Notes: generated from the sequence alone by a model not told the origin. A stretch of 32,000 bases of DNA from Candidatus Saccharimonadota bacterium (GCA_027925225.1 AP027131.1:150001-182000); one strand, 5' to 3'; counted from the first letter of the stretch, positions 531 to 31,798 are shown. Translations and numbers: made by a program.

Positions 531-3191
531 ATGAATGAAAACGATATTAAAAAATTAATATTAAAACTTAAAAAACATTTAATTTTTGATAAACAAGAAA
601 TAAAAATTTTAGAACAATTTACAAAAACAGGAAATTTATTAAAATTTATCCAATACAAAGTAATTAATGAAAATTTAGCTGATGGAAATTTTAAAAGTTA
701 TTATTTTTCAAATAAAGATTGAATAGAAAAAGAAATTTTAAAAAAATCAGATAATTACTGAAGCTTTGTAAAGGGTGAATCTTATAGTTTTGTAGATATA
801 AGTTCTACTTTATTTTTCTTTTTGCTAAAACCCATTTTTCTTAATTTTAAAAGCAAAAATAGAAAGGTTTCTATAATATTTATTGATGAAAAGATTTATA
901 AAAAATTAGGTAATTATGAATCAATTATGTTTTCTAAAGAATTATTTTTAGAAAACATAATTGAAAAAGATTTAAACAAATTTAAAGAAAAAAATTGTGA
1001 TTTTGCATTGTTTATTTATAAAAAAGTAAAAGATAAATCATATTTTAAATTTATTGATTATTTTTTATTTGAAAAAGAAGATTCTAATAATTTTTATTTT
1101 AAAATAAATAAAAAATCAATTGAACCTTTAGATTTTGAGGAAATTAATAAATTAAAAAATAAAAGTAAAATTTCTTTAAGTTTTGTTGAAGAAAAATCAA
1201 AAATTATTAGAGAAACCGTTAATAATAATATAGATTCTTTTCATAAAAAAATAATAGAAAAATTAAAAGATTCTAAAGAAAATAAAGAAATAAATTTTAG
1301 CGAAATAAATAATATGATTAAAAAAGAAGGAGAATCAATAAAAGAAATACTTGAAAATTATTTTAAAAATTTAGTAAATCAAAATTCAAATGAATTAAAT
1401 ATTGAAGGAAAATTAAAAGATATTATTCAAAAATTTAATAATAAATTAACTGAAATATTTGAGAAAAAAGAAACTTCTGAAATTTCAAATATTAATTTAT
1501 TAGAAGAAAAAATTAATGATTTAAAAGAAAAAATTGATGAAGAATTAAATGAGAGGTTTTTTGAATCAATAAATGTTGAAGGAATAATAGAATTAAATAA
1601 AAAAGAATTAGTTAATCAAATAGATAATTTAAAAATTGATATTAAAAGCGAGAGAGAAGATTTTTCAAAAACCTTAGATTTAAAGCTTCAAAAATTTTTT
1701 GAAAAAATTCTTAAATCAGAAGAAATAAATTCTACTTTTGATATTAACGATATTAAAAAGCAAATTAAATTTGAAAATGAAAAATTACAACAAATTTTTG
1801 ATAAAAAATTTGAAAAATATGTAGAAAATGTTCAAAAAAATAACACATCAATTGTTTCTTTTGAATTAAAAAATTTAAAAGATCAAATAAACTTTAGACA
1901 AAAAGAATTTGAAAAAACATTAACATCAAGTTTTGAAAATATTATCCAAAATCAAGAAAAAATAGGTAGTTTAAAATATGAATTAGAATCTTTTATAAAT
2001 AGAATTCTTATTGACCAAAAAAATTTAGAAGAAAATATTTTAAAAAAAATGGAAAATAAAATATCTGAAATAAATGATAAAAATTTAATTCAACCCCAAT
2101 TTATTGATAATAATGAATCTGATATTTTAATAAAAGAAATAGAGAAAATAAAAATATTTATAGAAGAAAATAAAAATATATTAGAAAATAGATTAGATTT
2201 AAGATTTAATGAATTTATTACAAATAAAGAAATAGAAAATGATAAAAGTTATAAAAAAACAATAGAAGAATTTAAAAAATTAATTCAAAATGAATCAAAA
2301 TATTTAGAAGAAAAAATTTTAAATTTAGTAAATAAAAATTTAAATATAAATGACTTAAATAATAAGTTTAAAGAAGAGACTGAAAAAATAAATAATTTAC
2401 TTGAAAAAAAACTAGAAGAAAAATTTTCTGAAATACTTTTAAATAGTGATCAAAATGCTTCCGCAAGTATAAAAGTTTTAAGAGATCAAATACAAGAAGA
2501 AAATAGAAGAATAAAATCAGAAATAAAAAATGCAATAAATTCAAAATTTTCTAAAATAAATAATAAAGATAATTTAAATATAAAAAAAGAAATTTCTTCA
2601 ATAAGAAATGAAATTCAAAAAGATCAAAGAAGATTAGAAAAAAATATTAGAGATTTATTTAATAAAGAAATTAATGCAATAAATTCAAGCAAAGATACAA
2701 AAAATATTAAATTAGAGCTTGAAAATCTTGCAAATCAAGTAAGAAATGAGCAAGCAAAACTAGAAAAAATTTTAGAAGGAAAACTTTCCGAAAAATTAGA
2801 AGAATTAATTAGTAATGATTTTGAAAAAAAAGAAACATTAAATTATGAGTTAGAATCTCTTAAAGAAGAAATCATAAATCAAAAAGAAAATATTAAAAAT
2901 ATTTTTGAAGAAAAATTAAATATAAAAATTGATGAAATAGTAAAAAGTAATGAAGTTTTTGCAGCAATAGATTTAGAAAATATAAAAAAAGAATTAATTT
3001 TAGAAAATGAAAAAATTCAAAAAAACATTGAAAAAAAAATAGAAGAGCAATTTTTAAATTTAAATCAAAAAACAAATGATGAAGAATCTTTTAAAAAATG
3101 AAATGAAATAAAAAAACAAATTGAAAATGAACATTTAATTTTAGAAGAAAAATTTTCTAAAAAAATAGAATGAACTTTCAGTAAACGATAA
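531..3191 (+). CDS. giant coiled-coil protein, segment A (886 aa as sequenced, ending at a frameshift-induced TAA)
   Basis: Track ORFs 531-722 and 822-3101 are in the same frame, joined by TGA codons at 720 and 759. The frame continues through TGA 3099 and TGA 3168 to TAA 3189-3191. ATG 531 is the first start after the leuS spacer. Confidence 0.8.
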
Positions 3192-6150
3192 ACAAATAAG
3201 TATAAGTTTTTTAAATTTAAAAGATAATCTTAAAATAGAAAATCAAAAAGCAATAGAAAATTTAGAGTTAAAAATTTTAAATTTAATAAATAAAAATTTA
3301 AATACAAATGATTTTAACCAAAAAATACAAGATGAAATAAAAAAAATAAATAATTTATTTGAAGAAAAACTAGAAGAAAAGTTTTCTGAAATAATTTTAA
3401 ACAGTGATCAAAATGCTTCTGCAAGCATAAAAGTTTTAAGAGATCAAATACAAGAAGAAAATAGAAGAATAAAATCAGAAATAAAAAATGCAATAAATTC
3501 AAAATTTTCTAAAATAAATAATAAAGATAATTTAAATATAAAAAAAGAAATTTCTTCAATAAGAAATGAAATTCAAAAAGATCAAAGAAGATTAGAAAAA
3601 AATATTAGAGATTTATTTAATAAAGAAATTAATGCAATAAATTCAAGCAAAGATACAAAAAATATTAAATTAGAGCTTGAAAATCTTGCAAATCAAGTAA
3701 GAAATGAGCAAGCAAAACTAGAAAAAATTTTAGAAGGAAAACTTTCCGAAAAATTAGAAGAATTAATTAGTAATGATTTTGAAAAAAAAGAAACATTAAA
3801 TTATGAGTTAGAATCTCTTAAAGAAGAAATCATAAATCAAAAAGAAAATATTGAAAATATTTTTGAAGAAAAATTAAATATAAAAATTGATGAAATGGTA
3901 AAAAGTAATGAAGTTTTTGCAGCAATTGATTTAGAAAATATAAAAAAAGAATTGATTTTAGAAAATGAAAAAATTCAACAAATAATTGAACAAAAAATAA
4001 GAGATGAATTTAGAAATATAAATCTAAATTCAAATATGAACACAATTACTGAAAATTTATTGCTTTTTAAAATACAAATTCAAAATCAGCAAGTTGAGCT
4101 TCAAAAAAACATTGAAAAAAAAATAGAAGAGCAATTTTTAAATTTAAATCAAAAAACAAATGATGAAGAATCTTTTAAAAAATGAAATGAAATAAAAAAA
4201 CAAATTGAAAATGAACATTTAATTTTAGAAGAAAAATTTTCTAAAAAAATAGATGAACTTTCAGTAAACGATAAACAAATAAGTATAAGTTTTTTAAATT
4301 TAAAAGATAATCTTAAAATAGAAAATCAAAAAGCAATAGAAAATTTAGAGTTAAAAATTTTAAATTTAATAAATAAAAATTTAAATACAAATGATTTTAA
4401 CCAAAAAATACAAGATGAAATAAAAAAAATAAATAATTTATTTGAAGAAAAAATAGAAGAAAAGTTTTCTGAAATAATTTTAAATAGTGATCAAAATGCT
4501 TCTGCAAGTATAAAAGTTTTAAGAGATCAAATACAAGAAGAAAATAGAAGAATAAAATCAGAAATAAAAAATGCAATAAACTCAAAATTTTCTAAAATAA
4601 ATAATAAAGATAATTTAAATATAAAAAAAGAAATTTCTTCAATAAGAAATGAAATTCAAAAAGATCAAAGAAGATTAGAAAAAAATATTAGAGATTTATT
4701 TAACAAAGAAATTAATGCAATAAATTCAAACAAAGATACAAAGAATATTAAATTAGAGCTTGAAAATCTTGCAAATCAAGTAAGAAATGAGCAAGCAAAA
4801 CTAGAAAAAATTTTAGAAGGAAAACTTTCAGAAAAATTAGAAGAATTAATTAGTAATGATTTTGAAAAAAAAGAAACATTAAATTATGAGTTGGAATCTC
4901 TTAAAGAAGAAATCATAAATCAAAAAGAAAATATTGAAAATATTTTTGAAGAAAAATTAAATATAAAAATTGATGAAATAGTAAAAAGTAATGAAGTTTT
5001 TGCAGCAATTGATTTAGAAAATATAAAAAAAGAATTAATTTTAGAAAATGAAAAAATTCAACAAATAGTTGAACAAAAAATACAAAATGAATTTGAAAAT
5101 ATAAATTTAAATGAAAGTATTAATATAATTACTGAAAATCTTTTGGTTTTTAAAATGCAAATTCAAAATCAACAATTTGAACTTCAAAAAAATCTTGAAA
5201 GAAAAATTGAAGAAAATTTTTTAAATCTAGAACAACAAATAAATGGAGAAGAAGCTTTTAAAAAATGAGATGAAATAAAAAAAGAAATTGAAAATGATCA
5301 CTTAATTTTAGAAGAAAATCTTTCTGAAATAATTTTAAATAGTGATCAAAATGTTTCTGCAAGTATAAAGATTTTAAAAGATCAAATACAAGAGGAAAAT
5401 AAAAAAATAAAAATAGAAATTCAGAAGATAATAAACTCAAAATTTTCTAAAATAAATAATAAAGATAATTTAAATATAAGAAAAGAAATTTCTTTAATAA
5501 GAAAAGAAATTCAAAAAGATCAAAGAAGATTAGAAAAAAACATTAGAGATTTATTTAATAAAGAACTTAATGCAATAAATTTAAACAAAGATACAAAAAA
5601 TATTAAATTAGAGCTTGAAAATCTTGCAAATCAAGTAAGAAATGAGCAAGCAAAACTAGAAAAAATTTTAGAAGGAAAACTTTCAGAAAAATTAGAAGAA
5701 TTAATTAGTAATGATTTTGAAAAAAAGAAACATTAAATTATGAGTTAGAATCTCTTAAAGAAGAAATCATAAATCAAAAAGAAAATATTGAAAATATTTT
5801 TGAAGAAAAATTAAATATAAAAATTGATGAAATAGTAAAAAGTAATGAAGTTTTTGCGGCAATTGATTTAGAAAATATAAAAAAGGAATTAACTTTAGAA
5901 ACTGAAAAAATTCAACAAATAATTGAGCAAAAAATACAAAATGAATTTAAATCAATAGATAAAAACGAAAACATAGATATAGTTATTGAACAACTTTTAG
6001 ATTTTAAATTGCAAATTCAAAGTCAGCAAATTGAACTTCAAGAAATATTTGAAAAGAAAATTGAGAAAGAATTTTTTGACTTAAGACAACAAATAAATGG
6101 AGATGAAGTTGTTAAAAAATTAGATGAAATAAAAAATCAAATTAATAATA
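2313..6150 (+). repeat. four tandem copies of a ~1,083-bp (361-codon) intragenic repeat unit
   Basis: The landmark TCTGAAATA..AGTGATCAAAATG occurs at 2427, 3385, 4468 and 5323, giving spacings of 958, 1083 and 855 bp. I checked base by base that 2471-2894 is identical to 3429-3852 (424 bp). Copy 4 (5323 to about 6150) is clearly diverged. Confidence 0.95.
3169..5736 (+). CDS. giant coiled-coil protein, segment B (internal open frame with no start codon of its own near its 5' end)
   Basis: Frame 1 is open from just after TAG 3166-3168 to TAA 5734-5736. It includes track ORFs 3895-4185 and 4891-5268, joined through TGA 4183 and TGA 5266. Its translation is the same repeat protein as segments A and C. 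The first in-frame ATG is not until 3895. Confidence 0.55.
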
Positions 6151-8351
6151 ATAATTTAAATTTAGAAAATAATTTTAATGAAAAATTTGATGATTTTTCT
6201 ATTAAAAATTCATCAGAAAATATTATTTATCAAATAGAATCATTAAAAGAACAAATTTTAAAAAATAAAAATTCTTTCGAAAGTTTTTTAGAAAATAAAA
6301 TTGAAGAAAAGGTAGAAAAAATTTTAAAAAATGATGAGGTATCTTCTGCAATTGATTTAGAAAATATTAAATATCAAATAAGAAAGGAAAATAATAGATT
6401 ACAAAACATTTTAGAAAAAAACATTGAAGATAAATTAAATTTTTTAAACAAAAATAGTGAAAAAGATAATAATTATTTAGAAAAATTAGAAGATATTAAA
6501 AAACAAATAGAGTTAGAACAAGGAAACCTAGGGAAATTATTTGATGATAAAATAAATTATATAGTTGAAAATCGAGAAACAAATAATATAGATATTGATT
6601 TAAAAAGAGATTTTGAAGATATATTATTTCAAATTTCAGATGAACAAAAAAGAATTGAAGAAAAAATTGATTCAAAATTAGATGATAAATTAAGTAGAAT
6701 TGTAGAAAAAGATGAGATAAATTCTTTAAAAATAGAAATAGAGAATTTAAAAAATGATCTTAAGAAAAATTTTGAAGAAAAATTATCAAATGTTTTTCCA
6801 AAAGAAAGCTTAGACAGAAAATTTGGAGATTTGCAAAAAGAAATTAAAAACTTAAAAAATGATATGAGCATTCTTTTAGAAGAAAAATTAAGTAAAATAT
6901 TAAATGAAGAAAACTTCAATTCAATTATTAATTTGGATAATATAAAATATGAATTTGAAAAAGAAAAAAATGAAATAAATTTTGAAATTAAAAGACAATT
7001 AGAAAAAGGAATAAAAACACTTCTAAAAAGTGAAGAAATAACTTCGGCTTTTGACTTTGAAAATATTAAAAAAGAAATCAATGATAAAAATAAAAATTTA
7101 CAAAGTGAAATCATAAAAAAAATATCAAAAATTTTTAAAGAAAACTTTGATAATATAAATGTAAATAGTTTTAAAGAAGAGATGAAAAATATGCAAAAAG
7201 ATTTAGAAAATCTTATAGAAGAAAAAATTAAAGAAACACTCCAAAATAAAGATTTGGATTCAGAATTTAATTTAAAATCTTTAAAAGATGAAATTAATAA
7301 GGTAACAAATAAAGTAAGAGATAATCTTGAAAATACACTCGAAATTAAATTTAATGAATTGTTAAAAAAAGAGCCAAATGAAATTAGAATTTCTAAAGAA
7401 AAAGATAATAAAAAAGAAATGGTTGATAAATTAAAAAAAACCATTGAAATTGAAATGAGTAAATTTAAAGGATTTTTTTTATCTGATAATAAAGAAAATA
7501 CAATTCTAAAAAGATTAAATGATAATTTTTTAAAATTACAGGAAGATATTAATAAATTAAAAAATGAAGTAAATTCAAGAATAAATGAACCTTCAGAAGT
7601 TGATCGAAAATTTGATGATTTTTTAGAAAAAGTTACAAAATCATTTTTAGAATATAAAGATAATGATGAAACAATTGAAAAACAAATTGAAAATGTGTAC
7701 AGTGAAATAACAGAAGAATTTAAGGGTGTTTTTAATCCTGAAATAATAAATGATATTAGTGGTGTTAATAGAAATAAAATAGAAAAAATAGATAAATTAG
7801 AAAATTCTGAATTAAGAAATTATAGTTATGAAAAAAAACCAAATGTGGAGTACCATCATAAAAATTTAAGAAAAATTGAAAATGTTGTTTCAAATTCTAA
7901 AAAAGTAGTAGAAGAGAAATTAAAAGATAATGATTTTTTTCAAGAATATAGAAATTATGAATTATATAAAGATAAGTTTTTTAAAAAAGATTTTATACTT
8001 TTAAAAACAATTTCTAATTACTTAAAAATGAAATTAATTATTTTAAAAAAACAATGTGAATTAACTGATGTTAGTAATGGGGATTTTCTTGTTGCAATTT
8101 ATATTAAACCATGATTTTTATGTAATTCAGAAGAAAGAATTGATTTAGAAAATACAATTCTTTTAAATAAATATCACGCTCTTTTATTTATAAAAGGAGC
8201 AATTTCATTTGATGATAATGGAGAAATATTGTTTTCAAATTTTGTAAAAGAATTGATAGGAAATAATTTAAGAAAATATCATTCAATAAAAATGAACGAA
8301 AAAAAAATACAGTATATGAAATTTCATAGGAAAAATGTTTTTTTAAATTAA
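5712..8351 (+). CDS. giant coiled-coil protein, segment C (internal open frame plus the globular C-terminal region)
   Basis: Frame 0 is open from after TAA 5709-5711 to TAA 8349-8351. It includes track ORF 6009-8114 and continues through TGA 8112. There is no ATG near its 5' end. The C-terminal ~90 aa (WFLCNSEERIDLENTILLNKYHALLFIKGAISFDDNGEILF...) are non-repetitive. Confidence 0.6.
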
Positions 8352-15282: not shown

Positions 15283-16035
15283 ATGAAAGATATTAAATTA
15301 GAATCTAAAGAAAAAATTTTTGAAAAAAATCAATATAATATCTCATATTTAACTTTTTTTTATTTTAAACAAGTATTTAATATTAAAAATTTATTAATGT
15401 TTGTCATTTTGTTTCTTTTAATTTTGACACTTTATAATTCCATAGGAAAAATAATCAATGCTAATGCTTTTAATTTATCAGACAGAAGTATAACTTTAAA
15501 TACTTGAACAACAATAATTTTTACGATTAATATTTATTTTACTTTGTTATTAAATTATATTTATTTATATTTAAAAAAATGTAATTTTACACAAGTAAAC
15601 TCTATAAAAAACACCATTAGTAATTTAATAATTATATTTTTAATTTTTATAATTTTTTATTCTTTTTTATATTTATTATTTCAAATTAATTTATCTGATT
15701 ATAAATATTATTCAAATGGAGAAAAAGCAGTTCCATTCAAAAATATAAATGTTTTATTTTTTAATATGTGTTTTTTTAATTTAATTGCAATTGCATTATT
15801 AAGCATTTTTGCTTCAAAAAGGAGAACATTTAAATTTCAATATTTATTTTTACTTGTAATTTTTATTTTAAATTTTATTTTTTTTCTTTGAATGCTTAAA
15901 ATTATATCTGCAGTTTCTGCGAATGAATATTTAAAATTTTTAAATATATTAAAAATTGAATCATCTATATTTTTAATTTTAATTTTTGTAAATTTATTTA
16001 AAAGAGTATTTCAAAATTATAGATATAAATTTTAA
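15283..16035 (+). CDS. multi-pass integral membrane protein (family not recognised)
   Basis: Track ORFs 15283-15507 and 15544-15891 plus the tail to TAA 16033-16035 form one frame joined by TGA 15505 and TGA 15889 (250 aa). Several long Phe/Ile/Leu-rich hydrophobic stretches are separated by short polar loops. It is a paralogue of the next gene. Confidence 0.7.
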
Positions 16036-16094
16036 AAATAATTTTAATTAGATAAATATTAGTTAACATAAGATTATAAAAAATGTTTATTTAA

Positions 16095-16830
16095 ATGGAA
16101 AAAGAATTTTTATCAATAAAGTATTTTAAATTTTTGGGTTTAATCTTGTTTTATATTAAAAAAACTTTTTAGTTTTAAAAATATTTTACTTTTTGCAATA
16201 ACATTTTTTATATTTTGAACATTTTTTGAAGGTTTTAACATTTGAATAAATTATTTTAGTTTAGATTCAAAATCATATATTTTTCGTATTTGAAAATATA
16301 AAATAAATATTTTGGCAATTTGATTTACTTTTGTGATTATATATTCCTATATATTTTTAAAGAAAAATAATTTTTTGCAAGTTAGTGCTTTTAAAAATTC
16401 TTTTAGTAATTTTATAATTATATTTTTTCTATTTATTTTACTATGAGGAACTACTTGTTTTTTTATGTTAAATCAAATGAGTTCCCATAGAGCATATGAT
16501 GAAACATATAATTATAGCATTGTAATTTATATGTTTACAATAATGTGTTGCTATAATTTGGTTACGCTTTTTACAATAAGTTTAATTTCTAAAAAATTAG
16601 ATTATTCAAATAGAAATTCAAATTTTTTCTATTTAATATTAATTATTGTGATTGTTATGCAACTTATATTATTTTTATATTTTCAAAGAATAATGTCATT
16701 TGCACATGATCAAGTCTTGAAAAAATTTAATATTATTACAGAGATATCTTTTATCATTATTTTTATTTTAATTATTTTAAATATTTTACAAAGATTTTTT
16801 TTAAGAAAAAAATTATCTCTAATTAATTAA
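16095..16830 (+). pseudogene. paralogous multi-pass membrane protein, frameshifted in a homopolymer region near codon 25
   Basis: ATG 16095 opens frame 0, which stops at TAG 16170-16172. The rest of the protein (frame 1, open from 16144 to TAA 16830, including track ORF 16465-16830 and five TGA codons) aligns to the upstream paralogue on both sides of the break. FYIKKTF/SFKNILLF aligns with FYFKQVFNIKNLLMF, and FLKKNNFLQVSAFKNSFSNFIIIFFLFI aligns with YLKKCNFTQVNSIKNTISNLIIIFLIFI. The length is 736 nt, which is 3n+1. Confidence 0.6.
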
Positions 16831-16953
16831 AATATTTTTAAATAATTAATTATTAATTTAATATAAATTTATTAAAATTAAAGAAATACTAAATTAAGCA
16901 TTTAAGTTTATAAGAAATTATTAATAATTATTTTTTATTTTTTTGTGTAAATA

Positions 16954-19287
16954 ATGAAAAAAATTTTTACTCCAATTCTTTTTATTTCTTTAATATTTTT
17001 AGTTACACTTTCAAGTGTTTCTTTTTTTAATTATTTTTCTAATAATCAAGTAAATAATAATATAAATACTGAAGAAAATATTGATTTAGAAAAGCAATTA
17101 GAAAATGCTTTTGTATTTAATCATAAATTACAAATAAAAGAATTTAAAGAAAATAATAAAGACACAGTAAACAAAAATTTTAATAATATGAGTTTTTATC
17201 AAATTAAATCTTGGTTAAAAAATAATCAAGATTTAATTCTTTGAAATTACTATGCTTTTTATGAGGAATTATCGTCATCTTTAACTTCTTTTATTTTTAT
17301 TTATATAAATCAAAATATTTTTAAAAGTAAAATAGAAGATTTTTTAATTACAATTAATTATTGTCTTGTTTCAAAAGAAAATATTGAGAATAATATAAAA
17401 GTAAATAGCTATGTTAGTCCAGAGAATATAGGTAAAATAAGAAACGTCGAGATTATAAGAATTAATGATATTACAAATAATAGTTATTTTAATCAATATA
17501 TTAATAAACATTTTTTTATTATTAAATATAAATTTGAAAAATTAAATAATATTTCTGATCATTATTATTTAGATACATCATTTTCTAATAAATTATCTGT
17601 TTGAATTGAATATTCTAATGAAAATTATCAAGAATTTTCATTTCGTATCATAGAAAACAGTGTTAGCAGTTTTGATTTAAATTATGAGAATAATTTTTAT
17701 TTAAATAATCCAAAAATTATAATAAATAATTTATTTTTTTTAAATAGCAATGTTGTTGAACTTAATTTAAATATCTTACTTCCTGAAAAAATTAGCATTA
17801 AAGAATTTTTAAATAATTTAAAAATTTATGCAGATTATAGATCTTATGATAATAGTAAAAATGAAAATAATTATCAATTAACTTTTACATCTGACGATGA
17901 TTATTATAAATATGGAAATAGCAATTGATATAACGTAACAATTTATATAAATAATATTTCAAAAGAAGAAGGAATAATTTATTATAATTTTTCTTTTTTT
18001 TATAATAATGAAGAAATATTTTTAAATGAGTGAGTTGATAATTACAAAATAATTACCCCAATCCACCCCCCTCAAATTGAGAATGTTTATTATGAAGAAA
18101 ATGAATATTATGATAATTCTTTTTACATCTTTATAAAATATAATGATGAAATAAATTATCAATTAGCTAATAATTTAGTTTTGTCTTATAAAAATAATGG
18201 AAAAGAAGAATATAAAGTTTTAACAAATCCAATTTATATGGAAAATTTGGATATTTATAAATATGAAATAAATTTTGATAAAAATAATACAAATGACTTA
18301 TCATCTTTTGTTTTTGTAAATAGTGGATATTTTGAATATGATTATTTAAACAATTCTTTTGTTAAAAATTATAAAGATAATAAAAATTATTTAAGTACCA
18401 CTGGTTATAAGTATTTTTTTAAAGAAATAAATTTTGAAACAACTTTTAATAAATTAAATATCGATGTAATTGATTCAAAAATTACAAAAAAAGGAAATAA
18501 ATATTATTTAGATGTTTTTTATCATTCTAATAAAATTTGAAATAATACTAAAAATGGAAATTTAAATTTAATAAAGGAAATTAATTTTAATTATTCCTTA
18601 TATGATAATAAAAATAATAAAATTGAAAAATATTCTAAAAATTTATACTATTCTAAAATAAATTTTATAAATTATAAAAATAATATAGAGGTTTTTTATG
18701 AAATACCAACTTTTGAGGAAAATAGTATATATACAAATATGAGTTTTTCATTAAATAAATTAGATTTTAAATATAATGAAAAATACTTCTTAAATAAGAA
18801 GATTTATATAACTAATTTCTCCAATACAAATATAAATAATATAAAAATTGAAAAAGTAAAAAATGATTCTATTACATTTGAAATTACATATTCTGATGTT
18901 TCAAAAATTCAAGCCAATAACTTAAGAATTACTTATAAGGACTCAAATAATAATGAATATGATAGTTTAAAAGAAGAAAATTTAATTAGCAATTCTACAA
19001 TTTATGAAAATCAATATGAATATACTTTAACAAATTTGGAAAATAACACTAAATATAAAGATTTTAATATTTATTTATTAAATAATGTAAGTAGTGATTA
19101 TAAATATGATTGAACTTTTTTGTATTTTGATGATTCTGTTTATCCAAATAATTATGAAAATGTATCAGTTGAAACCAAAAATAAAATTTTAATAATTCTT
19201 TTATCTTTATTAATTTTATTATTATACATTTTTACATTTACATATTTTTTAATTAAGTATATTAAATACAGAAAAAGTATTTTATAA
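16954..19287 (+). CDS. Asn/Tyr-rich surface protein with an N-terminal signal-anchor, FN3-like modules and a C-terminal TM anchor (777 aa)
   Basis: Track ORFs 16954-17244, 18181-18540 and 18739-19113 are all in one frame. I checked every codon in between; the only interruptions are TGA codons (17242, 17602, 17926, 18031, 18538, 19111). The gene ends at TAA 19285-19287. The N-terminus is MKKIFTPILFISLIFLVTLSSVSFF. The C-terminus is ILIILLSLLILLLYIFTFTYFLIKYIKYRKSIL. Confidence 0.75.
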
Positions 19288-19323
19288 TAATTTTAGATTT
19301 TAAATAATAAAAAGGAAACAAAT

Positions 19324-20805
19324 ATGCAAAAAGTAAATAAAAGAGTTTTGGCGACTGTTCTTTTGCCATTTTTTTTAATGATAATAGTATTACCTTTTAC
19401 AAAAAATAATTTAAAAATTAAAAATATTAATGAAGAAAATAATTTTCAAATTATTTCTTCTTATTTTGATTATGAAACATTAAAATACATCAGTGGAGAA
19501 TATGCCGAAAATGATATGACAGTATTGGCAACTACCGGTGTTTATAATGGAGATATTTCTCAAATAAATTCAATAACATTTGATTATCAAATTAAATCAG
19601 AGAATGATAATGATTATCACAACGTTTCTTTTGATGTAAATAAAAGTTTATTTAAAATTGAGAATTTAAATTCAATTACTTATTTTTATGTTGAATTACC
19701 TATTTATTATGATTATTTAACAGATTTTATATTTTTAGAATATGGTATAAATTACTTTATTTTAAATCCCACTTTAACAATAAATAATATTGATAATACA
19801 TCTATTAGTACAACTTATGAACAAGATTATAATATATTACCCGGAGTAACCATTTCTGATAATGGAGACCAAAGTTATCCTAAAATTGTGGGTTTTTCAG
19901 GTTCTAATTCGAGAGAAGTAAAAGTTCTCTTTTCTGATGGAGATAATTTTAATTTTTTAAATTATTCTTCTTATTCTCTTTATCACTATGCAGAATATTA
20001 TGATCTTTATGATACAAATAATGAAAATTTATTAGTAAAAGATTTTAGCAAATTAACTCCAGCTGGTAATGCTAAAAAAATAGAAAATACTAATTATGAA
20101 GGCTTATATGAACAAAGTTTTAAATGATCAGATGAAATGAAAAAACCTCCTCTAAATTATGGTTATAAGGTCGTAAATGAATCTTTATTATTTAATTTAA
20201 ATAATAATTATAAAACAATAAGTTATATTTTATTTAATTTAACTAATGAAAAAGAAAAATTAATTACTCCTAATATTTATAAAAAAAATATTTTAAATAT
20301 AACAATTAGCAGTAATGGAGAATTTACTAATTATGATTATTTAAAATTTGATATTTATTTAGATAAATATAATAAAAATAACACTTCATCTTATAAAGAA
20401 TTTACTAAGCATATTGAGATAGGGTTTAATTGAAAAATGCAAGTCAATGTAGATGATCCTTATGGTGGGCACAAAGAAATTCATACAGAATATATAACTT
20501 ATAAAGCTCAAGAGGTATCTGAAATAAATTCATCTTTCCTTTATACTTCTGGACTTTACTACCAAGAATCGGATATAAAAGCAACAACAGACCACACATT
20601 GCATTACACTTATTATTTAGTTCTTCCCAATGAAAATGATTGAATATTTGCAAACAATGAAACATATGGTGGCATTATGACTTTTAATGAATTTGGTATT
20701 TATTTTTCAAATATTATGACATATGACTCAGTTGATGGATATGAATATCTTTTTGCTAAAAATTCTCCAAATATAGTTATAGATAACGTTTTTATAAATC
20801 ATTAA
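19324..20805 (+). CDS. secreted or membrane-anchored Asn/Tyr-rich protein (493 aa), family not recognised
   Basis: Track ORFs 19324-20127, 20137-20433 and 20437-20643 plus the tail to TAA 20803-20805 form one frame joined by TGA codons. The N-terminus MQKVNKRVLATVLLPFFLMIIVLPF is a signal peptide or anchor. The gene starts 37 nt after the preceding surface-protein gene. Confidence 0.7.
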
Positions 20806-20816
20806 ATTTAATTTAA

Positions 20817-20857
20817 AAAAGCTTTCAATTAAAATTATTTTTTATTTGAAAGCTTTT
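20817..20857. terminator. bidirectional hairpin between convergent genes
   Basis: The perfect 12-bp arms are AAAAGCTTTCAA (20817-20828) and TTGAAAGCTTTT (20846-20857), separated by a 17-nt loop. A-rich sequence lies on one side and T-rich on the other. The right arm overlaps the last codons of the minus-strand MazF-like gene. Confidence 0.5.
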
Positions 20858-21417
20858 CTAAATTTATGCTTAATAAAATACTTTTCCATTCTTTTTAAAT
20901 TAACTGTAAAATCATTAATTTTAGTTAATTCACTTCTTGCATTATATATTTCTTCTTTTTTGAATGTTAATGGTTCATCAATAATAACATAAGAAATTTT
21001 TCCATTTATCTTTATTTTTTGTTGTTTGCCTTTTTTATGTTTTTTGCTTGTTATTTGCAAAATAACAATTTTATTATTTGAAGTAAAGTTTTTTAAAACA
21101 TAATAAGGTCTATTTTTTTCATATTCATAAATTTGACCAATTTTTCTATCAGATAAATAAATTACTTCTCCTGGAAAAATATTAAAATGTTTTTTATTTC
21201 TTTCATCTAATTTATTTTTAGCTTTTTCTAAATCATCTTTACTATTTAAAATGGCCGCTATTTGATAAGGATTTCTTTCTCTTATTTTATCAACATTTAA
21301 TACAATAAAATTTACATTTGCTTGTTTTCTTATTCAAGAAATCAGCATTTCATTTAATTCATCTTGCTCATCATTTCTAAATTTCTGTATTAAATAGGTA
21401 TATCTTAAATTTTTCAT
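20842..21417 (-). CDS. MazF/PemK-like endoribonuclease toxin domain with a ~78-aa N-terminal extension (191 aa)
   Basis: The frame runs from ATG 21417 to TAA 20844-20842 with one in-frame TGA. Track ORF 21060-20842 is only the C-terminal third. Its motifs line up with MazF/PemK as follows:
- FPGEVIYLSDRKIGQIYEYEKNRPYYVLK matches G-D/E-h-h-W/Y-V..........G.E....RP.hVL.
- NNKIVILQITSKK matches the vivaPiTs strand.
- ISYVIIDEPLTFKKEEI matches s.vl.dQirtidk.rl. Confidence 0.6.
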
Positions 21418-21498
21418 TTCTAATCTTGTATGTCAATATTATTATCTTGTATTACAAAATTTTTTGATAAGAAATTTATAATTTATAATTTAATTTGA

Positions 21499-23211
21499 AT
21501 GCACACACAACAAAACACTTTATTATTAAAGGACATTGATAATAATATTATTTACATGCTTTCTTTTTCTCATCTTATTGATAATTATTGAAAAAGTGAT
21601 GAAAGAAATTTTAATAGTTTAATAAATCAAGAAGGGCAAACATTAAATCAAAAATTAATTTCCATTCAATCTAAGAGAGAAATATTCCAAATTTTAAATT
21701 TAGAAGAATTAAAATTAATAATAAAAGATCTTTATTTAAGAAGAAGTATATTTATACATTTTATTGATAATCATTATGAATTTAATAATGATGAACTTTT
21801 TAAAGTTTATTATAAAATTTTAAAATTTAAAATAAGTAAAAGTTTTTTTAATAAAAAAAAAGTAAAAGAATTTATTTTTAAATATATTAATTATCTTTCT
21901 TCAATTATCTTTTTATATTCAGAAGAAAAAGATTCCTTTTTTTGAGACATAAAAAATATGTATGAAAGAAATTTAATGAAAAATTTTTCAATGATTCCAG
22001 AAAATAGATATAGTGAAATAAATTATGAGGCTGTTAATTGATATAATCATTATTTTTTTAATAAAATGAATAATAAAAACTCAGGAAATAGATATGAAAG
22101 TTTTTTGCTGCATTATGTAAATTTATTAAATGATATTTATAGTATACAAAACAAATTTTATTTTAAAAGTTATATTATTCATGAAAAATTTAAAATAATA
22201 GAAAATAAAAAATATAGTATAAAAAAAAGACACAAAAGTAATTCTATAGTTTTACTTTTTAGAGATTCAAAGAAGCCAGAAAACATTAAAGTAAACTTTG
22301 CATTATTTGATTATAGAATTTTTTTAATTATAGAATTTAAAAAAATTTTTAATAAAATGAATAAAAATTATGAAGAAGAAATTTTAAAAAAAATAATAAA
22401 ACAAGCAACAATAGAATTAAAGAAAAGAAATAAAATAGATAATTATTTTTCAATGTTTGATTTTTTACATATTTTATTTTCAAATGATGAAATTGAAAAA
22501 TTAAGTGTAATAGAGAAATCTACAAAAAAATGATTTAAAGATTTAGATAGTAATAATTATCAAAAATTTATTAAAAAAAAGATTATTACTGCATATATCT
22601 ATAATAAATTAAACCTTAATATTTCATTTTCCTTATTTTTAAAAAAATATTCAAGATTAAAAATTACAGAATTTTTATTATATTATTTTGTAATGAATGA
22701 AAAAAAGGAAAGTCACACATTTTTAAGAACATGAGAACTTTTTTTAAAAGATTATGAGGAGAAAAATTTAAATTTAAAGTTTTTAAATTTTAAAATTAAA
22801 AGAAAAATAAATATTAATAAAAATAAATTTATTTATATAGTTGGAACAACAAAGGACTTTTTTAAATTTTATTTTTTAATAAAAAATAAAAAACATATTT
22901 TAAGAATAGCAAAAAGAAATAGAATTAAAAATAATTCTGAATATTCAATAAAGTATGTTTGAAAAGAAATAGAAAAAATAATTTTATTAAAGCTTTTAAA
23001 TAAAGATGAAAATCTTACAATTGTTAGAAAATATGAGGAAGTAAAAGAAAATAATAAAAATGTAATAAAACCTTTATTTCATAATTATAGAAATTATATT
23101 GCTCATTTGGGAAATGGAAATGAGAATTTTTTTATTTCATATAAGGACTATGTAAGGAAAAAATGAAAAGTAAAAGAAATTATCAAAAATAATGATTTTT
23201 ATCAAAATTAA
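21499..23211 (+). CDS. 570-aa protein with two Rx4H (HEPN-type) motifs; putative tandem-HEPN RNase
   Basis: The frame runs from ATG 21499 to TAA 23209-23211. I checked every codon; the only interruptions are seven TGA codons, and track ORF 22066-22533 is an internal piece. The motifs are LYLRRSIFIHF (the R-S-I-F-I-H codons are 21742-21759) and FHNYRNYIAHLGNG (the RNYIAH codons are 23089-23106, about 35 aa from the C-terminus). An alternative start at ATG 21430 is possible. Confidence 0.55.
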
Positions 23212-23320
23212 TTTTAAAGTAATATAATGATTTTGGTTATGTTTTGTTTTTATAATAAATTCAAACTTAGCTCATTCAAATAGTTTGTTTTAGTATTAAT
23301 TGTAGAAATTAATCTAAAAT

Positions 23321-23350
23321 AAAAAAGGGAGATTTTCTCCCTTTTTGTTT
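23321..23350. terminator. bidirectional rho-independent terminator
   Basis: The sequence AAAAAAGGGAGATTTTCTCCCTTTTTG has a GC-rich stem (GGGAG/CTCCC, extendable into the flanking A and T runs), a 5-nt loop and a T-run on both strands. It lies between the convergent HEPN-like gene and manA. It is the only GC-rich hairpin I found in the window. Confidence 0.7.
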
Positions 23351-23356
23351 TATTAT

Positions 23357-24313
23357 TTATTTTAAATTATTTGGATATGCTACTAAAAGAGTCATTTTTC
23401 CATCAATTATTAATCTATCAAGTTCATCTGAAGTTATTATTATATTTTCATTTTTTAATAAAGCAGAATTTCCTATTATTCCATGACCTTCTAAACAATT
23501 TATTGTTAAAAAATTTACTTTATTTTTAGGAAGTTTAATTTTTACTTTCTTAAATATTTCTCATTTTTCTAATGTAAAATTATTATTTTTTGCAAGCTCA
23601 ATTATTTTTATGCTCTCATTTGTTATATTTTCAATTGCTTCAGAAGATTTTATTAAATTTTTTTCATTTATTGATTTTAATATTTTTTTAATTTGCGTAT
23701 TATCAATATTTAATAATTTTTCTTTATCTTTTTCTTTTTCGTTAAATATAATTATTGGCTTTCCAGTATTATCCTCTACTGAAAAAATTAAACTATTTGC
23801 CTTTATGTTGTATATTGTGCCAGAATTAACATTATAAGCTTTATTTTTTTCTAAACTTTCTTCTTCAAAAACAAATTTTCAATCATAAAATTTTAAAGCA
23901 TTTTTTAAAAGACTTTTATTTTTTATGCCTATTACAAATTTTTCTTTTTCATCAAGATCTAATGGATATCAAATTTGATTTGTTTCATTTGTTTTTTTCT
24001 TCATTGAAAAAAAACTAATTTTTGGATTTACAACAACAGGTAAATTTTTTCCTGTATTTATTATTTTTATTGAAAAAGGAAATTTATCTTTGTAATAATT
24101 ATTAAAAAGTTTTTCTCTATTTTCTTTATAAAATTCATCAAGATATTTATTTGTTCCTATTATTCTATTTATATTATCTCCATCACCAGAGAATAAAACA
24201 ACTTCTCCAATTTTTCCATGATTAGCATTATTTTCTTTTTTATTAAAAACTTTTTTAATATCATTTCCGCCTCATGGTTTTTTAACAAATATTGGTTCTA
24301 TTTTGAGTATCAT
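23357..24313 (-). CDS. manA: mannose-6-phosphate isomerase, class I (Bacillus-type PMI)
   Basis: The frame runs from ATG 24313 to TAA 23359-23357 (318 aa) with four TGA codons. The N-terminus MILKIEPIFVKKPWGGNDIKK...HGKIGEVVLFSG...FPFSIKIINTGKNLPVVVNP matches the PMI pattern (P.F.E+.WGG / IGE.W..S / FP.LIKI.DA...LSVQVHP). The conserved W of WGG is TGA 24274-24272. Confidence 0.85.
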
Positions 24314-24483
24314 ATTATTCCTTTCATTCCTAAAAACAACTAAATATTCCCTATAATATTATTATAAGTATTATTACTTTTAAAATCATTTTATTATTTT
24401 TTTTTATAAATTTTTAAAAAAATGAGAAAAGAAGAAATTTATTTATAATGTTGTATTTAGATTTTGAAAAGGAAAATCATAGT

Positions 24484-25584
24484 ATGAAAAGAGATAAAAA
24501 AACAGAACAAATAAATTTAAGAGTTACAAAAGAAGAAAAAGAAAGAATAAAATATTTATCAAAAAAAAGCAAACAATCTTCTCTTTCTAAATACATAATA
24601 AACCGTAGTTTAAATTTAGAAAATGATGATAATCTATCTTTTAAAAGGATTAATACATTGACAATTAACCCTTGGATATTATGTAGATTAAATATTAAGG
24701 AATTAAACAATAATATAAATTATGATACAAATGATTTAAATATTGAAATTATGGGTTCTGGAATAATTGCCTCAAAAATTATTAAGAAATTCAATTTACA
24801 AACCTTAACTATGCATTATTCTGGAGGTTTTACCGGTAAATATCTTATAGATAATTTAATAAATGAAAATATCGAACAAATACAATATGAATCAGAAAAA
24901 AATTCAAGAGTAAATTTAGATGTTTTCTATGATATTAATAAAAAAATTTCATTTGCAGGAGAGCCTTCAAAAATTAATGCAATATCAAAACAATTTATTT
25001 TAAAAAAAATAAGAACATTTTCTTCAAATGATATGTTTCTTATTACAGGAGATTTTCATAAAGATGATGAAGATTTTATTTACGAAATGTCAAAAGTTGC
25101 AAATAAAAATGGTGTAAAATTAATTTTTGATTTAAATAAAAATTTTAATAATATATTATTAAAATTTAATCCAATAATTATTAAATTGAAATATATTGAT
25201 TTATTAAATTATTATTCTAATTTTAAATTAATTGATGATTTAAGTAATAAAGATAATTTTGAAAAATTTAAAAAAATTTTACTAGAGCTTAGAGAAAAAG
25301 GAGCGCAAAATATATTGATAACATTCGACAGCAAAAGATCAATGCTTTATGATAGTGATTCAAATTTTTTTACTGCATTTATTGATTATGAATTTAAAGA
25401 TAAATCATATCAAGGTTCAGATGATGTTTTTATTGGAGCTTATGTATCTAATTTTTTAATAAACTCTTATGAAGCATTCCTTTATGCGAATGCAACAAAG
25501 ATGGCTTCGATTTCCAAAGAAGGAATTCCTAGTATTGATGAAATTAATATAATGAAGAAAAATGTAAAAATAAAAAAACACTAA
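24484..25584 (+). CDS. fusion of a ribbon-helix-helix (MobC/CopG-like) domain to a divergent 1-phosphofructokinase-like PfkB domain
   Basis: The ORF is continuous in the track (24448-25584). ATG 24484 is preferred because AAGGAAA lies about 9 nt upstream. Residues 10-43, INLRVTKEEKERIKYLSKKSKQSSLSKYIINRSL, follow the RHH pattern. From residue ~56 the sequence aligns to FruK: TLTINP, GSGIIASKI, HYSGGFTGKYLIDNLINENIE, SRVNLDV, GAQNILITFDSKRSML, and GSDDVFIGAYV in place of GAGDS..AG. Confidence 0.7.
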   Translation: MKRDKKTEQINLRVTKEEKERIKYLSKKSKQSSLSKYIINRSLNLENDDNLSFKRINTLTINPWILCRLNIKELNNNINYDTNDLNIEIMGSGIIASKIIKKFNLQTLTMHYSGGFTGKYLIDNLINENIEQIQYESEKNSRVNLDVFYDINKKISFAGEPSKINAISKQFILKKIRTFSSNDMFLITGDFHKDDEDFIYEMSKVANKNGVKLIFDLNKNFNNILLKFNPIIIKLKYIDLLNYYSNFKLIDDLSNKDNFEKFKKILLELREKGAQNILITFDSKRSMLYDSDSNFFTAFIDYEFKDKSYQGSDDVFIGAYVSNFLINSYEAFLYANATKMASISKEGIPSIDEINIMKKNVKIKKH

Positions 25585-25616
25585 TGTGTTTTTTTATTTT
25601 TTTAAGATAAAATATT

Positions 25617-25712
25617 CTATTTTGACATTGTGTTGTCTTTATTTTTTTCGTCTTTTTTTACTTTATCTTTATTTTTGTCTTTCTTTTCTCAGAATTTTCA
25701 ATTCATTGCCAT
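25617..25712 (-). CDS. candidate small Lys-rich protein (31 aa)
   Basis: The frame runs from ATG 25712 to TAG 25619-25617 and encodes MAMNWKFWEKKDKNKDKVKKDEKNKDNTMSK (two TGA-Trp codons). GAGGT lies 8 nt upstream of the ATG, one of the clearest Shine-Dalgarno matches in the window. I cannot assess homology or conservation for it. Confidence 0.3.
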
Positions 25713-25822
25713 ATTTTTTACCTCATTTTTATTTTATACATTTTTTTCAAAAAAGTAACAATATAATTATATTATAAAAAGTAAAAAATTTTTTTTTATT
25801 AAGATTAATTTAAAATTAAATT

Positions 25823-29884: not shown

Positions 29885-31798
29885 ATGAACACAAAATTAG
29901 ATAATGATTATTTTTTAGGTAAACTAATAAAAGTTGAAAATGATATTGCATATTTGCATACAACAAACTTTAATCTTGAAAATAAGAGTTATATTATTTA
30001 TAAAAATAAGATTTTTAAAACACCTTATGTTGGTTCATTTTTAAAAATTTCTTCTTTTGGAAATTATTTTATTGCAAAAATAATTTCTGAAAAATTATTT
30101 ATTAATGAAAAAAATAAATATAAAATATACAAAATTTCTCTTATTGGTTTATTAGATGATTTTTATAAAATAAAAAATGATTATTCTTTTAGTCCGCAAG
30201 TTGGAAATAATGCATCCCTTTTTAGTAATGATGAACTAGATAAAATAGAATCAACAAAAGTTGAAGAAGGTTTTTATATTGAAAATGTAGGTACAATAAA
30301 AGATAATAGAGTACCGCTTGCAATAAATATAGATTTTTTTGCATCAAATATATTATTTGTAGGAAATAAAAATTTTGGGAAAACTAATTTAGTTTTTAGA
30401 ATTTATCGTAAATTTTTTTTTAATTATTTAAAAAAATTTAATAAAAATTATAAATTTTTATTTTTAAATTTTGAAAGTGAATTACATGATGATTTAAAGA
30501 TAATTTCAGATAAGGAAAATTACAAAGGTAAATTTATAGAAGTTGGTCTTGAAAATAATTCAATAAATCTTTTTAAAAAAGAAGATTTATTGCTTAATGA
30601 TTATTATTTATTGGGCGAAATAAAAGGAAATTCAGAAGCAAAAATTGCAGAAGATTTTTTTAATTGAGAAAGAAATGGATATGAAGATTTAAATATAGGA
30701 GAAATTTTTAATTTTGTTAAAAGTGACGAGAGAATATTAAACCATTTTAAAAACTCTTTTAAAGCTCTTTATAGAAAAAGAAGAGAATTAATAAAAAATA
30801 ATTTTAATTTTTCTAAATTAGAAAGATATCTTAATTATGCTCTTTTAAATATTAATAGTTTTTTAGACAATCTTTTTTTTAAAGAAAATAAATTGTTTTT
30901 AAAAACAGCACTTTTTAAAGAAAATAAAGATTTTAAAAAAGCTTTTTCAAGTCTCTATAAATATTATAAAGATGTTGAATATCTTGAACTTACTGGAGAA
31001 AGATTTAAATGACTTAGAGATTTTATTTTATTAAAAGAAAATAAAAATACATTTGATGTTACTTTTGAATTTAAAAAAAATATTAAAAAAAGTTTTAGAT
31101 TGAAACTAAATTTTTTTGTATTAAAATCTCTTATAGAAGAAAAGGAATGTAATTATGATCAAATAATAAATTTTTCTTCTAAATTTATTAAAAACTGAAA
31201 AATAATAAAGCATTTATTTTATGAAAATGATATTGAGTTAAAAGAAAATGTATTTGAAAAAAATAATATTTTTTCATTTAATTTTAAAAATTTAGGTAAT
31301 AATAAATCCTTGTTTGCAACAATTATTATTAAAAAAATTTATTCAAAATTTATAAAAATATCCGAAAAAGAAAAATTATTAAATATAATAATAGATTCTA
31401 AAGAGCAATTATTTGATTCAAAATATGATGATAGTATGTATTATGTAAAATATAAAAATAATTTTTTTAAAAATCTTTTAATAAAAGGAAAAGAGAATAA
31501 TGTTTATTCAACTTATTTATCATCATCATTTAAAAATTTAAATGTAGATATTCTTAATTTATTTAATAATTTTTTTGTTTTTAATTTAACTAGTAGCTTC
31601 GATTTTCAAATTATTTTGGAAAATTTTAATATTATAGAAGAAGATAATATTAAAAAAATAAGAAAATTTGGATATAACAATTGTTATTGTTTTGGGAAAA
31701 ATTTTATTAGATTATTAGAAATTTATTTTGAAGAAAATTATAACAAACAAAAAAGAGAAATTAATAATGAAACAACCATTAGTAAATTTCTCTCATAA
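29885..31798 (+). CDS. divergent HerA/DUF87-like P-loop ATPase (637 aa)
   Basis: Track ORFs 29885-30667 and 31310-31798 are one frame. I checked every codon between them; the only interruptions are TGA at 30665, 31010 and 31196. The layout is as follows:
- an N-terminal barrel-like segment (YFLGKLIKVENDIAYL...YVGSFLKISSFGNYFIAKIISE);
- Walker A GNKNFGKT (30362-30385);
- Walker-B-like LLNIIIDSKEQ (31376-31408);
- a C-terminal NNFFVFNLTS block. Confidence 0.55.

Follow-up and report, generated by a model that had tools for sequence, protein, structure and literature searches.

A conserved structured RNA candidate beside a divergent pair of putative ribonuclease genes in Candidatus Hepatoplasma vulgare

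The divergent gene pair and its distribution

The stretch of DNA analysed here (32,000 nucleotides (nt), AP027131.1:150001-182000; hereafter the window) holds a divergent pair of genes, A and B, together with a candidate for a structured RNA of about 115 nt directly after gene B. Exact protein matches identify the source of the window as Candidatus Hepatoplasma vulgare, a mollicute symbiont of a pill bug with a 662-kb genome (PMC10928387); the read sets listed for it there (DRR394921, DRR394929) are shotgun DNA from the whole genome. Its G+C content is about 18% and H. vulgare uses genetic code 4. Because TGA is read as Trp, open reading frames (ORFs) called with table 11, which splits genes A and B into fragments, are misleading, and they were redone under code 4. 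Gene A (20842-21417, minus strand; HPAVJP_1570, BDV02268.1) then encodes a two-domain protein of 191 amino acids (aa) and contains one TGA-Trp codon, while gene B (21499-23211, plus strand; HPAVJP_1580, BDV02269.1) encodes a protein of 570 aa and contains seven. Gene B is annotated from Met20; the start at 21499 is backed by an M-H/Q-T sequence conserved across the three lineages compared, namely H. vulgare (the window) and two relatives represented by the Logan contigs L001 and L002. The original prediction for this locus had placed a divergent pair at these coordinates, and both ORFs are intact under code 4.

The genes are separated by a divergent promoter spacer of 81 nt (21418-21498), with TATAAT boxes on the plus strand at 21477-21482 and 21484-21489, exactly as had been predicted. 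A distance of 9 nt separates the second box from the ATG of gene B, suggesting a leaderless or near-leaderless mRNA. The spacer is conserved in L001; that of L002 is 119 nt long and likewise has a TATAAT box close upstream of the start codon. Taken alone the boxes carry little weight, since promoter-like sites are not enriched over shuffled sequence in DNA of 18% GC (134 found, 125 ± 11 in shuffles).

Each gene has two further homologues among 5.8 billion sequences, on the same two Logan contigs, and the phyletic distribution of the two genes is identical (H. vulgare, L001 and L002). When 1.84 billion cluster representatives were searched exhaustively with an HMMER profile, gene B had no relatives outside this clade; tblastn gave no match to it in plasmids and phages, and back-translation of the Trp-free peptide HNYRNYIAH, which contains its second motif (see below), gave none in genome or metagenome contigs. 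Peptides with Trp escape such scans in code-4 organisms, as Trp is back-translated only to TGG. A word-indexed profile search with gene A found no relatives beyond its three orthologues. H. vulgare shares about 46% average amino-acid identity with the named Hepatoplasmataceae; as orthologues should still be detectable at this distance and none were found, the pair appears to be restricted to the vulgare clade.

On both contigs the gene order is rsmE-like, A, B, PMI-like cupin, ribbon-helix-helix (RHH)-PfkB kinase and rsgA. No mobility genes and no compositional anomaly were found near the pair. Gene A (orthologues 74% and 58% identical) and gene B are 58% and 56% identical, respectively, to their L002 counterparts, which is the same divergence as that of their neighbours and an average rate. 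Ratios of nonsynonymous to synonymous substitution (dN/dS) of 0.24 for gene A and 0.15 for gene B, with 0.11 to 0.41 for the neighbours, show that both genes are under purifying selection. The adjacency of A and B is conserved in H. vulgare, L001 and L002, but as these are only three syntenic relatives it amounts to about one evolutionary observation.

These data bear on the main rival to any modular interpretation, which is that A and B are lineage-specific orphans with no functional link, a divergent spacer being all that they have in common. Gene A would then be a domesticated MazF-fold protein, or a protein of some other fold, with a housekeeping or other role; the Rx4H motifs of gene B would not be a nuclease site; and the RNA would be an independent small RNA or a structured 3' untranslated and terminator region of B. 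Evolution at core-gene rates (dN/dS 0.15 to 0.24) and a conserved housekeeping synteny lacking mobility genes, of which the adjacency is simply a part, are both in its favour, whereas the single presence/absence pattern shared by A and B speaks against it. It is a possible explanation, only slightly less likely than the module preferred here, and the protein and RNA evidence on either side of it is taken up below.

In the window, four genes (15283-20805) lie between the rsmE-like gene and gene A. They encode a multi-pass membrane protein of 250 aa, a protein of 121 aa, and proteins of 777 and 493 aa that have N-terminal signal or transmembrane segments. None has an orthologue in L002, and L001 has only a distant counterpart (34% identical) of the first, 250-aa gene. 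By this comparison the surface-protein genes are a lineage-specific insertion, and the ancestral context of the pair is therefore one of housekeeping genes. The view that the pair does not sit among housekeeping genes holds for H. vulgare only; in the relatives it abuts rsmE, rluB-like and scpAB genes.

The structured RNA candidate and the flanking hairpins

The RNA candidate lies in the 145-nt spacer directly after gene B and had been overlooked in the original prediction. It is the most interesting part of the locus. An ATATAAT box resembling a -10 element (23222-23228, plus strand) lies 11 nt after the stop codon of gene B and is invariant in the three lineages; a promoter scan matched it as TTATCA-18-TATAAT. 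Downstream are hairpin 1 (23235-23272, plus strand), a consensus structure from RNAalifold in which 3 of the 12 pairs are changed on both sides, and hairpin 2 (23284-23323, plus strand), which has 17 pairs and a GUAGA loop. Together with the terminator that follows, the two hairpins (23235-23346) give a z score of -4.76 and a consensus energy of -23.2 kcal/mol, with 95.6% of cells paired. Seven pairs are changed on both sides, compared with 2.9 ± 1.3 in shuffles (none of 500 reached seven) and none or one in slid-partner controls. The plus strand is favoured (-23.2 versus -13.7 kcal/mol), and invariant G.U pairs would become A.C mismatches on the other strand.

The block containing hairpin 2, AGTTTGTTTTAGTATTAATTGTAGAAATTAATCTAAAA, is identical at 34 of 38 positions between the window and L002, and all four differences form two compensatory pairs. 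It is the best-conserved window of seven orthologous spacers, the next best having 29 of 38 positions identical. Identity over the whole spacer is unexceptional (0.66, with 0.41 to 0.67 for the other spacers), and only the local block stands out. The 5' arms of the two hairpins show a resemblance (GGTTATGTTTTG and AGTT-TGTTTTAG; 23235-23281 and 23282-23328, spaced about 47 nt apart). The hairpins may be two diverged copies of one unit, resembling the two abiF motifs in RCd22, an RNA antitoxin considered below, although the sequence is AT-rich.

No conserved peptide was found in the region of the RNA candidate. A small peptide encoded between gene B and the PMI-like gene was considered and rejected, as the 18-aa ORF of the window lacks conservation. 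Whether as antisense or as guide, the RNA is no more complementary to the window than shuffled sequence is. The genome and metagenome contigs scanned yielded no further instances of the motif, and eight viral-contig matches to a 20-nt core were attributed to chance, their flanks being unrelated.

The RNA could have arisen independently of A and B, as a derivative of a type II-A CRISPR-Cas9 system akin to a tracrRNA, a scaRNA or a natural single guide. Hairpin 2 (GUUUUAG...CUAAAAU) resembles a fused repeat:anti-repeat, mollicute II-A repeats begin GTTTTRG, and Hepatoplasmataceae keep a type II-A Cas9. However, the Cas genes are some 80 to 95 genes away, no nexus-like element is present, and the repeat of H. 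crinochetorum, the only one compared, shares just its first 8 nt or so with hairpin 2. Chance resemblance also comes easily in AT-rich sequence. Such an origin is very unlikely.

The original prediction had described the pair as insulated by the two strongest inverted repeats in the window. Both repeats are present where they had been placed, but they rank fifth (left) and second (right) by 45-nt folding energy. The left hairpin (20817-20857) is a perfect 12-bp inverted repeat with a 17-nt loop and a folding energy of -16 to -21.7 kcal/mol. It lies between the convergent gene for the 493-aa surface protein, which ends at 20805, and gene A, whose stop codon is at 20842-20844; its right arm is within the coding sequence of gene A and encodes the C-terminal KAFK. 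It folds weakly in L001 and is absent from L002, where the 3' end of gene A overlaps the rsmE-like gene by 8 nt. The terminator scan did not list it because it has only two G-C pairs per arm. The right hairpin (23322-23346) has an 11-bp GC-containing stem, was matched by the terminator scan on both strands and is kept among the three lineages with compensatory changes. It is predicted to end both the transcript of gene B with the RNA candidate (plus strand) and that of the PMI-like gene (minus strand, stop at 23357). Terminator-like hairpins are enriched in the window, with three found and 0.4 expected from shuffles. The strongest hairpin of the window is at 922-966, a perfect 19-bp stem (-19.7 kcal/mol) inside the coding region of a gene for an 886-aa protein.

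Both hairpins are flanked by convergent stop codons (20805/20842 on the left, 23211/23357 on the right). From this position, and because the left hairpin is not conserved, it follows that they are ordinary bidirectional terminators and form no conserved bracket. Insulation by hairpins is accordingly not supported: the left one is specific to H. vulgare, being weak or absent in the two related lineages, so a hairpin bracket is not a feature of any module here. The locus is best read as clade-restricted, vertically inherited and made up of three parts, and not as a hairpin-insulated cassette. What had been noticed is real but was over-interpreted.

Putative ribonuclease domains of the two proteins

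The N-terminal domain of gene A (residues 1-76; 21190-21417, minus strand) has a predicted beta-alpha-beta-beta-alpha fold with no Pfam match; in an AlphaFold model built with three sequences, residues 1-70 reach a predicted local distance difference test (pLDDT) score of 67 to 92. The C-terminal domain (residues 77-191; 20845-21189, minus strand) is putatively a PemK/MazF-like endoribonuclease domain. The full-length protein has no match in Pfam, NCBIfam or PADLOC. When the C-terminal domain was scanned alone, PemK_toxin (PF02452) was the only Pfam match (E = 0.0018, profile positions 14-93 of 109), gene A residues of about 95 to 165 covering most of the profile. Alignment of this domain by hhalign to a MazF/Kid alignment gave P = 0.0015; the target comprised MazF of B. 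subtilis, S. aureus and E. coli together with Kid, in approximate sequences. It pairs R103-P104 (21106-21111, minus strand) with R25-P26 of B. subtilis MazF, and T123 (21049-21051, minus strand), which lies in a Q-I-T-S sequence, with T48. We take R25-P26 and T48 to be the catalytic Arg-Pro and Thr of MazF. In gene A, R103-P104 and T123-S124 are invariant in the three orthologues. A phage PemK/MazF toxin was the top Foldseek match in a viral library (E = 0.011, prob 0.91), and E. coli MazF recurred among the non-significant Foldseek matches in the PDB (E = 0.28 to 1.4). A profile search of the PDB with gene A did not retrieve MazF.

Four weak and partly independent signals thus converge, and the C-terminal domain of gene A probably has a MazF-like fold. 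The earlier description of gene A as MazF-like can be kept tentatively on the Pfam, hhalign and Foldseek results, but membership of the PemK/MazF family is not established, as all four results are below threshold. Compared with known PemK/MazF toxins (PF02452; E. coli MazF, B. subtilis EndoA and Kid), gene A keeps the G-[DE]-[IV] start, the R-P and the I-T-[ST] motifs and retains the catalytic Arg and Thr positions, and this family gave the top weak structural match. It differs in having the 76-residue N-terminal alpha/beta domain, in lacking a co-transcribed MazE, PemI, AbrB or RHH antitoxin, gene B being divergent, and in its housekeeping-like context in the chromosomal core.

Gene B is predicted to be mostly helical and contains two invariant Rx4H motifs, R82-S-I-F-I-H87 (21742-21759, plus strand) within the block IIKDLYLRRSIFIHF, and R531-N-Y-I-A-H536 (23089-23106, plus strand). 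The HEPN motif has been defined as Rx4-6H with a polar residue after the Arg, placed at the end of a helix that runs into a loop (PMC3710099). In the second motif the Arg is followed by a polar Asn, and the motif stands at a predicted helix end that leads into a Gly/Asn loop and then another predicted helix. HEPN domains are four-helix up-down bundles that carry the motif at the end of helix 3; in gene B both motifs fall in predicted helices, in an AlphaFold model with a mean pLDDT of 33.5 and a predicted template modelling score of 0.24. Only one Rx4H occurs in the 8,836 residues of the other window proteins, compared with two in gene B, and both of these lie within the four most conserved 15-residue blocks of the protein.

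Full-length gene B has no match in Pfam, NCBIfam or PADLOC, and PHROGs gave one non-significant match. The motif-bearing segments searched alone against Pfam at E ≤ 10 matched no family, HEPN and Abi_2 families included. Profiles of the N- and C-terminal segments retrieved only non-significant, unrelated matches from the PDB, with no HEPN, Cas13 or AbiF protein among them; matches to designed repeat proteins in the PDB profile searches were rejected as low-complexity artefacts. Across these searches none of the known HEPN families (HEPN, Abi_2, AbiU2, AbiV, RnlA, Csx1/Csm6, Cas13 and others) was matched. From its motifs, gene B may be a HEPN protein, though this reading is at the motif level and stands at somewhat less than even. 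The two invariant Rx4H motifs are thus what survives of its earlier classification as a tandem-HEPN protein, for which profile, PDB and structure searches gave no backing.

The protein evidence also bears on the protein-only pair put forward originally, in which a MazF-like and a tandem-HEPN protein, insulated by hairpins, neutralise each other or A is self-neutralised through its N-terminal extension. A and B are conserved and adjacent, the extra N-terminal domain of A is confidently folded, and the locus has no small antitoxin ORF, MNT or MazE. Nevertheless, the supposed insulators are terminators, only the right one being conserved, divergent transcription (as opposed to an operon) is atypical of protein toxin-antitoxin pairs, an interaction of A with B is without support, and the HEPN assignment is only motif-level. 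The absence of a partner also needs qualifying, for while there is no conserved small ORF, MNT, MazE or AbrB in or beside the pair, there is a structured RNA candidate directly after B, and a protein-only scheme leaves this conserved RNA unaccounted for. Such a scheme seems quite unlikely.

The locus as a possible RNA-restrained ribonuclease module

Our tentative preference, on balance of the analyses, is that the locus could be an RNA-restrained ribonuclease (RNase) module, a reading that remains short of probable. It is favoured because AbiF has a cis-encoded RNA antitoxin and type III toxins are RNA-neutralised. The C-terminal half of gene A would be a PemK/MazF-type endoribonuclease domain that retains the catalytic Arg-Pro and Thr behind an unrelated alpha/beta domain. 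Gene B would combine two HEPN RNase half-sites in one chain, in the manner of Cas13, with one Rx4H near each end. The RNA of about 115 nt would be made in the direction of gene B, with its own -10 box first, then the two hairpins and finally the terminator, and would bind the gene B protein and block its composite HEPN site. RNA cleavage would be unleashed once this RNA was lost or cut. Gene A would be a second RNase, restrained in cis by its own N-terminal domain or by B.

The nearest precedent is AbiF, an Abi_2 HEPN toxin neutralised by the cis-encoded structured RNA AbiFr/RCd22 (PMC12373285; PMC12737573). RCd22, about 100 to 130 nt long, is served by a sigma-70-type promoter of its own and contains two hairpin motifs and an intrinsic terminator, and AbiF is described as a symmetric dimer with one HEPN domain per monomer (PMC12737573). 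Similarly, the putative HEPN gene B adjoins an RNA candidate of comparable length with a promoter, two hairpins and a terminator. On the other hand, the RNA candidate is without the abiF motif RF03085, gene B is without Abi_2 similarity and, at 570 aa, has two Rx4H motifs in one chain, and the locus is not prophage-borne.

In Cas13b-type effectors the HEPN domains are placed at the N and C termini. Gene B likewise is one chain with an R-x4-H near each end, and the conserved RNA hairpin beside it is, at about 40 nt, similar in size to a repeat. Gene B is, however, much smaller than Cas13 and has no sequence similarity to any solved Cas13, there is no CRISPR array in the 32-kb window, and the putative guide region of the RNA candidate is itself structured. 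These comparisons bear on the idea that B and its RNA form a small RNA-guided HEPN effector, Cas13-like or ancestral, whose one guide is fixed and which has no CRISPR array; hairpin 2 would be the direct repeat and the variable 5' part the guide. Besides the placement of the motifs, it would fit the high conservation of hairpin 2 and the variation between lineages of the region 5' of it, and Cas13 is considered to derive from AbiF-type systems that have a non-coding RNA (PMC12737573). Yet that 5' region forms a hairpin of its own with compensatory changes, unlike a free guide, and its complementarity to the window is not above chance; with neither an array nor any similarity to Cas13 or AbiF, an effector of this kind is very unlikely. 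Gene B and its RNA might even represent a new, sequence-orphan branch of RNA-bound single-chain tandem-HEPN ribonucleases between AbiF-type toxins with RNA antitoxins and Cas13, kept as an array-free core gene in a 660-kb genome and paired with a MazF-like protein; we regard this as unlikely.

Two other classes share parts of this arrangement. Type III systems of the ToxIN/AbiQ kind have a MazF-fold RNase, as ToxN has a MazF/Kid-like fold, and like them the locus combines a putative MazF-fold RNase with a structured RNA and no protein antitoxin. They differ in that the RNA candidate is single-copy and without tandem ToxI-like repeats, lies about 1.8 kb from the start codon of gene A on the opposite strand and not upstream of A, and that gene A has no ToxN match in Pfam. 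With HEPN-MNT (type VII) systems the locus shares the Rx4H motifs as a putative active site, but it has no MNT nucleotidyltransferase in the neighbourhood, and gene B is far larger and has two motifs.

The weighing of an RNA-restrained module against two unlinked orphan genes turns on how these signals are read. That no defence or toxin-antitoxin model matches A or B, that all the family evidence is sub-threshold and that composition alone yields two Rx4H motifs with P = 0.07 all agree with unlinked orphans. The convergence of four weak results on PemK/MazF for gene A with its catalytic residues conserved, the invariance of both motifs of gene B, which stand towards the two ends of the protein and in its best-conserved blocks, and the direct precedent in AbiF for a structured RNA beside a putative HEPN gene all argue in the other direction.

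Several observations weigh against the RNA-restrained module. No assignment to a fold or family reaches its threshold. For gene A, the PemK_toxin score is 18.9 bits where the cut-off is 23.1 bits, and one of the three orthologues matches; the hhalign probability for MazF/Kid is only 16.6%; no Foldseek match reaches E ≤ 0.001; and the C-terminal half, which is beta-rich in the AlphaFold model, has a pLDDT below 50. For gene B, the P of 0.07 just given is that of finding two or more Rx4H motifs in composition-matched shuffles, no internal duplication links the two motif-bearing regions, the full-length PDB profile search gave no match at E ≤ 10, the structure model (pLDDT 33) is too poor to back a HEPN fold, and neither profiles nor solved structures of HEPN, Cas13 or AbiF proteins show any similarity to it. 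The covariation of the RNA is drawn from only three sequences and its transcription is a prediction. It is single-copy in each lineage with no tandem repeat, and a search of Rfam gave no family at the gathering threshold or at E ≤ 10, abiF motif RF03085 included, but only terminator-driven noise. The RNA also lies downstream and not upstream of gene B, unlike the AbiF RNA antitoxin. A toxin-antitoxin or defence cassette would not typically show housekeeping-like selection, a non-mobile context or divergent transcription, and, with the whole region in synteny, the proximity of A, B and the RNA to one another carries no information.

Other features of the surroundings were recorded. The gene at 24448-25584 (plus strand), 1.2 kb from gene B, encodes a PfkB-family sugar kinase (E = 3.4e-5) with an N-terminal NikA-like RHH domain (PF21983, E = 1.9e-7, residues 17-57), and this fusion is kept in L001 and L002. 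The RHH domain is a typical DNA-binding fold of repressors or antitoxins. A strong terminator hairpin (25558-25602) follows the PfkB gene and is succeeded by a long spacer (25585-25822). This spacer is 238 to 330 nt long in the lineages compared, and gene callers place a minus-strand ORF of 32 to 39 aa there in both relatives (L001 14134-14232, L002 13937-14056). At 531-8351 are genes for three large Lys/Glu/Asn-rich proteins (886, 613 and 495 aa) that have long, near-identical internal repeats in common; those of 886 and 613 aa have no orthologues in L001 or L002. A 637-aa orphan (29885-31798, plus strand) has no Pfam match, and its orthologues in L001 and L002 are 71% and 45% identical.

Should the module prove to be no more than two orphan genes and a small RNA, the locus would be of local interest only. 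If the RNA-restrained reading is right, a symbiont of the gut whose genome is among the smallest known would keep, under selection at the level of housekeeping genes, an RNase module that matches no described family closely. The module would include a MazF-like toxin without a protein antitoxin, and a compact, array-free, RNA-associated tandem-HEPN protein that would be relevant to the origin of Cas13 from AbiF-like toxins. It would also provide a test case for what toxin-like RNases do in reduced genomes, whether in defence, RNA turnover or addiction.

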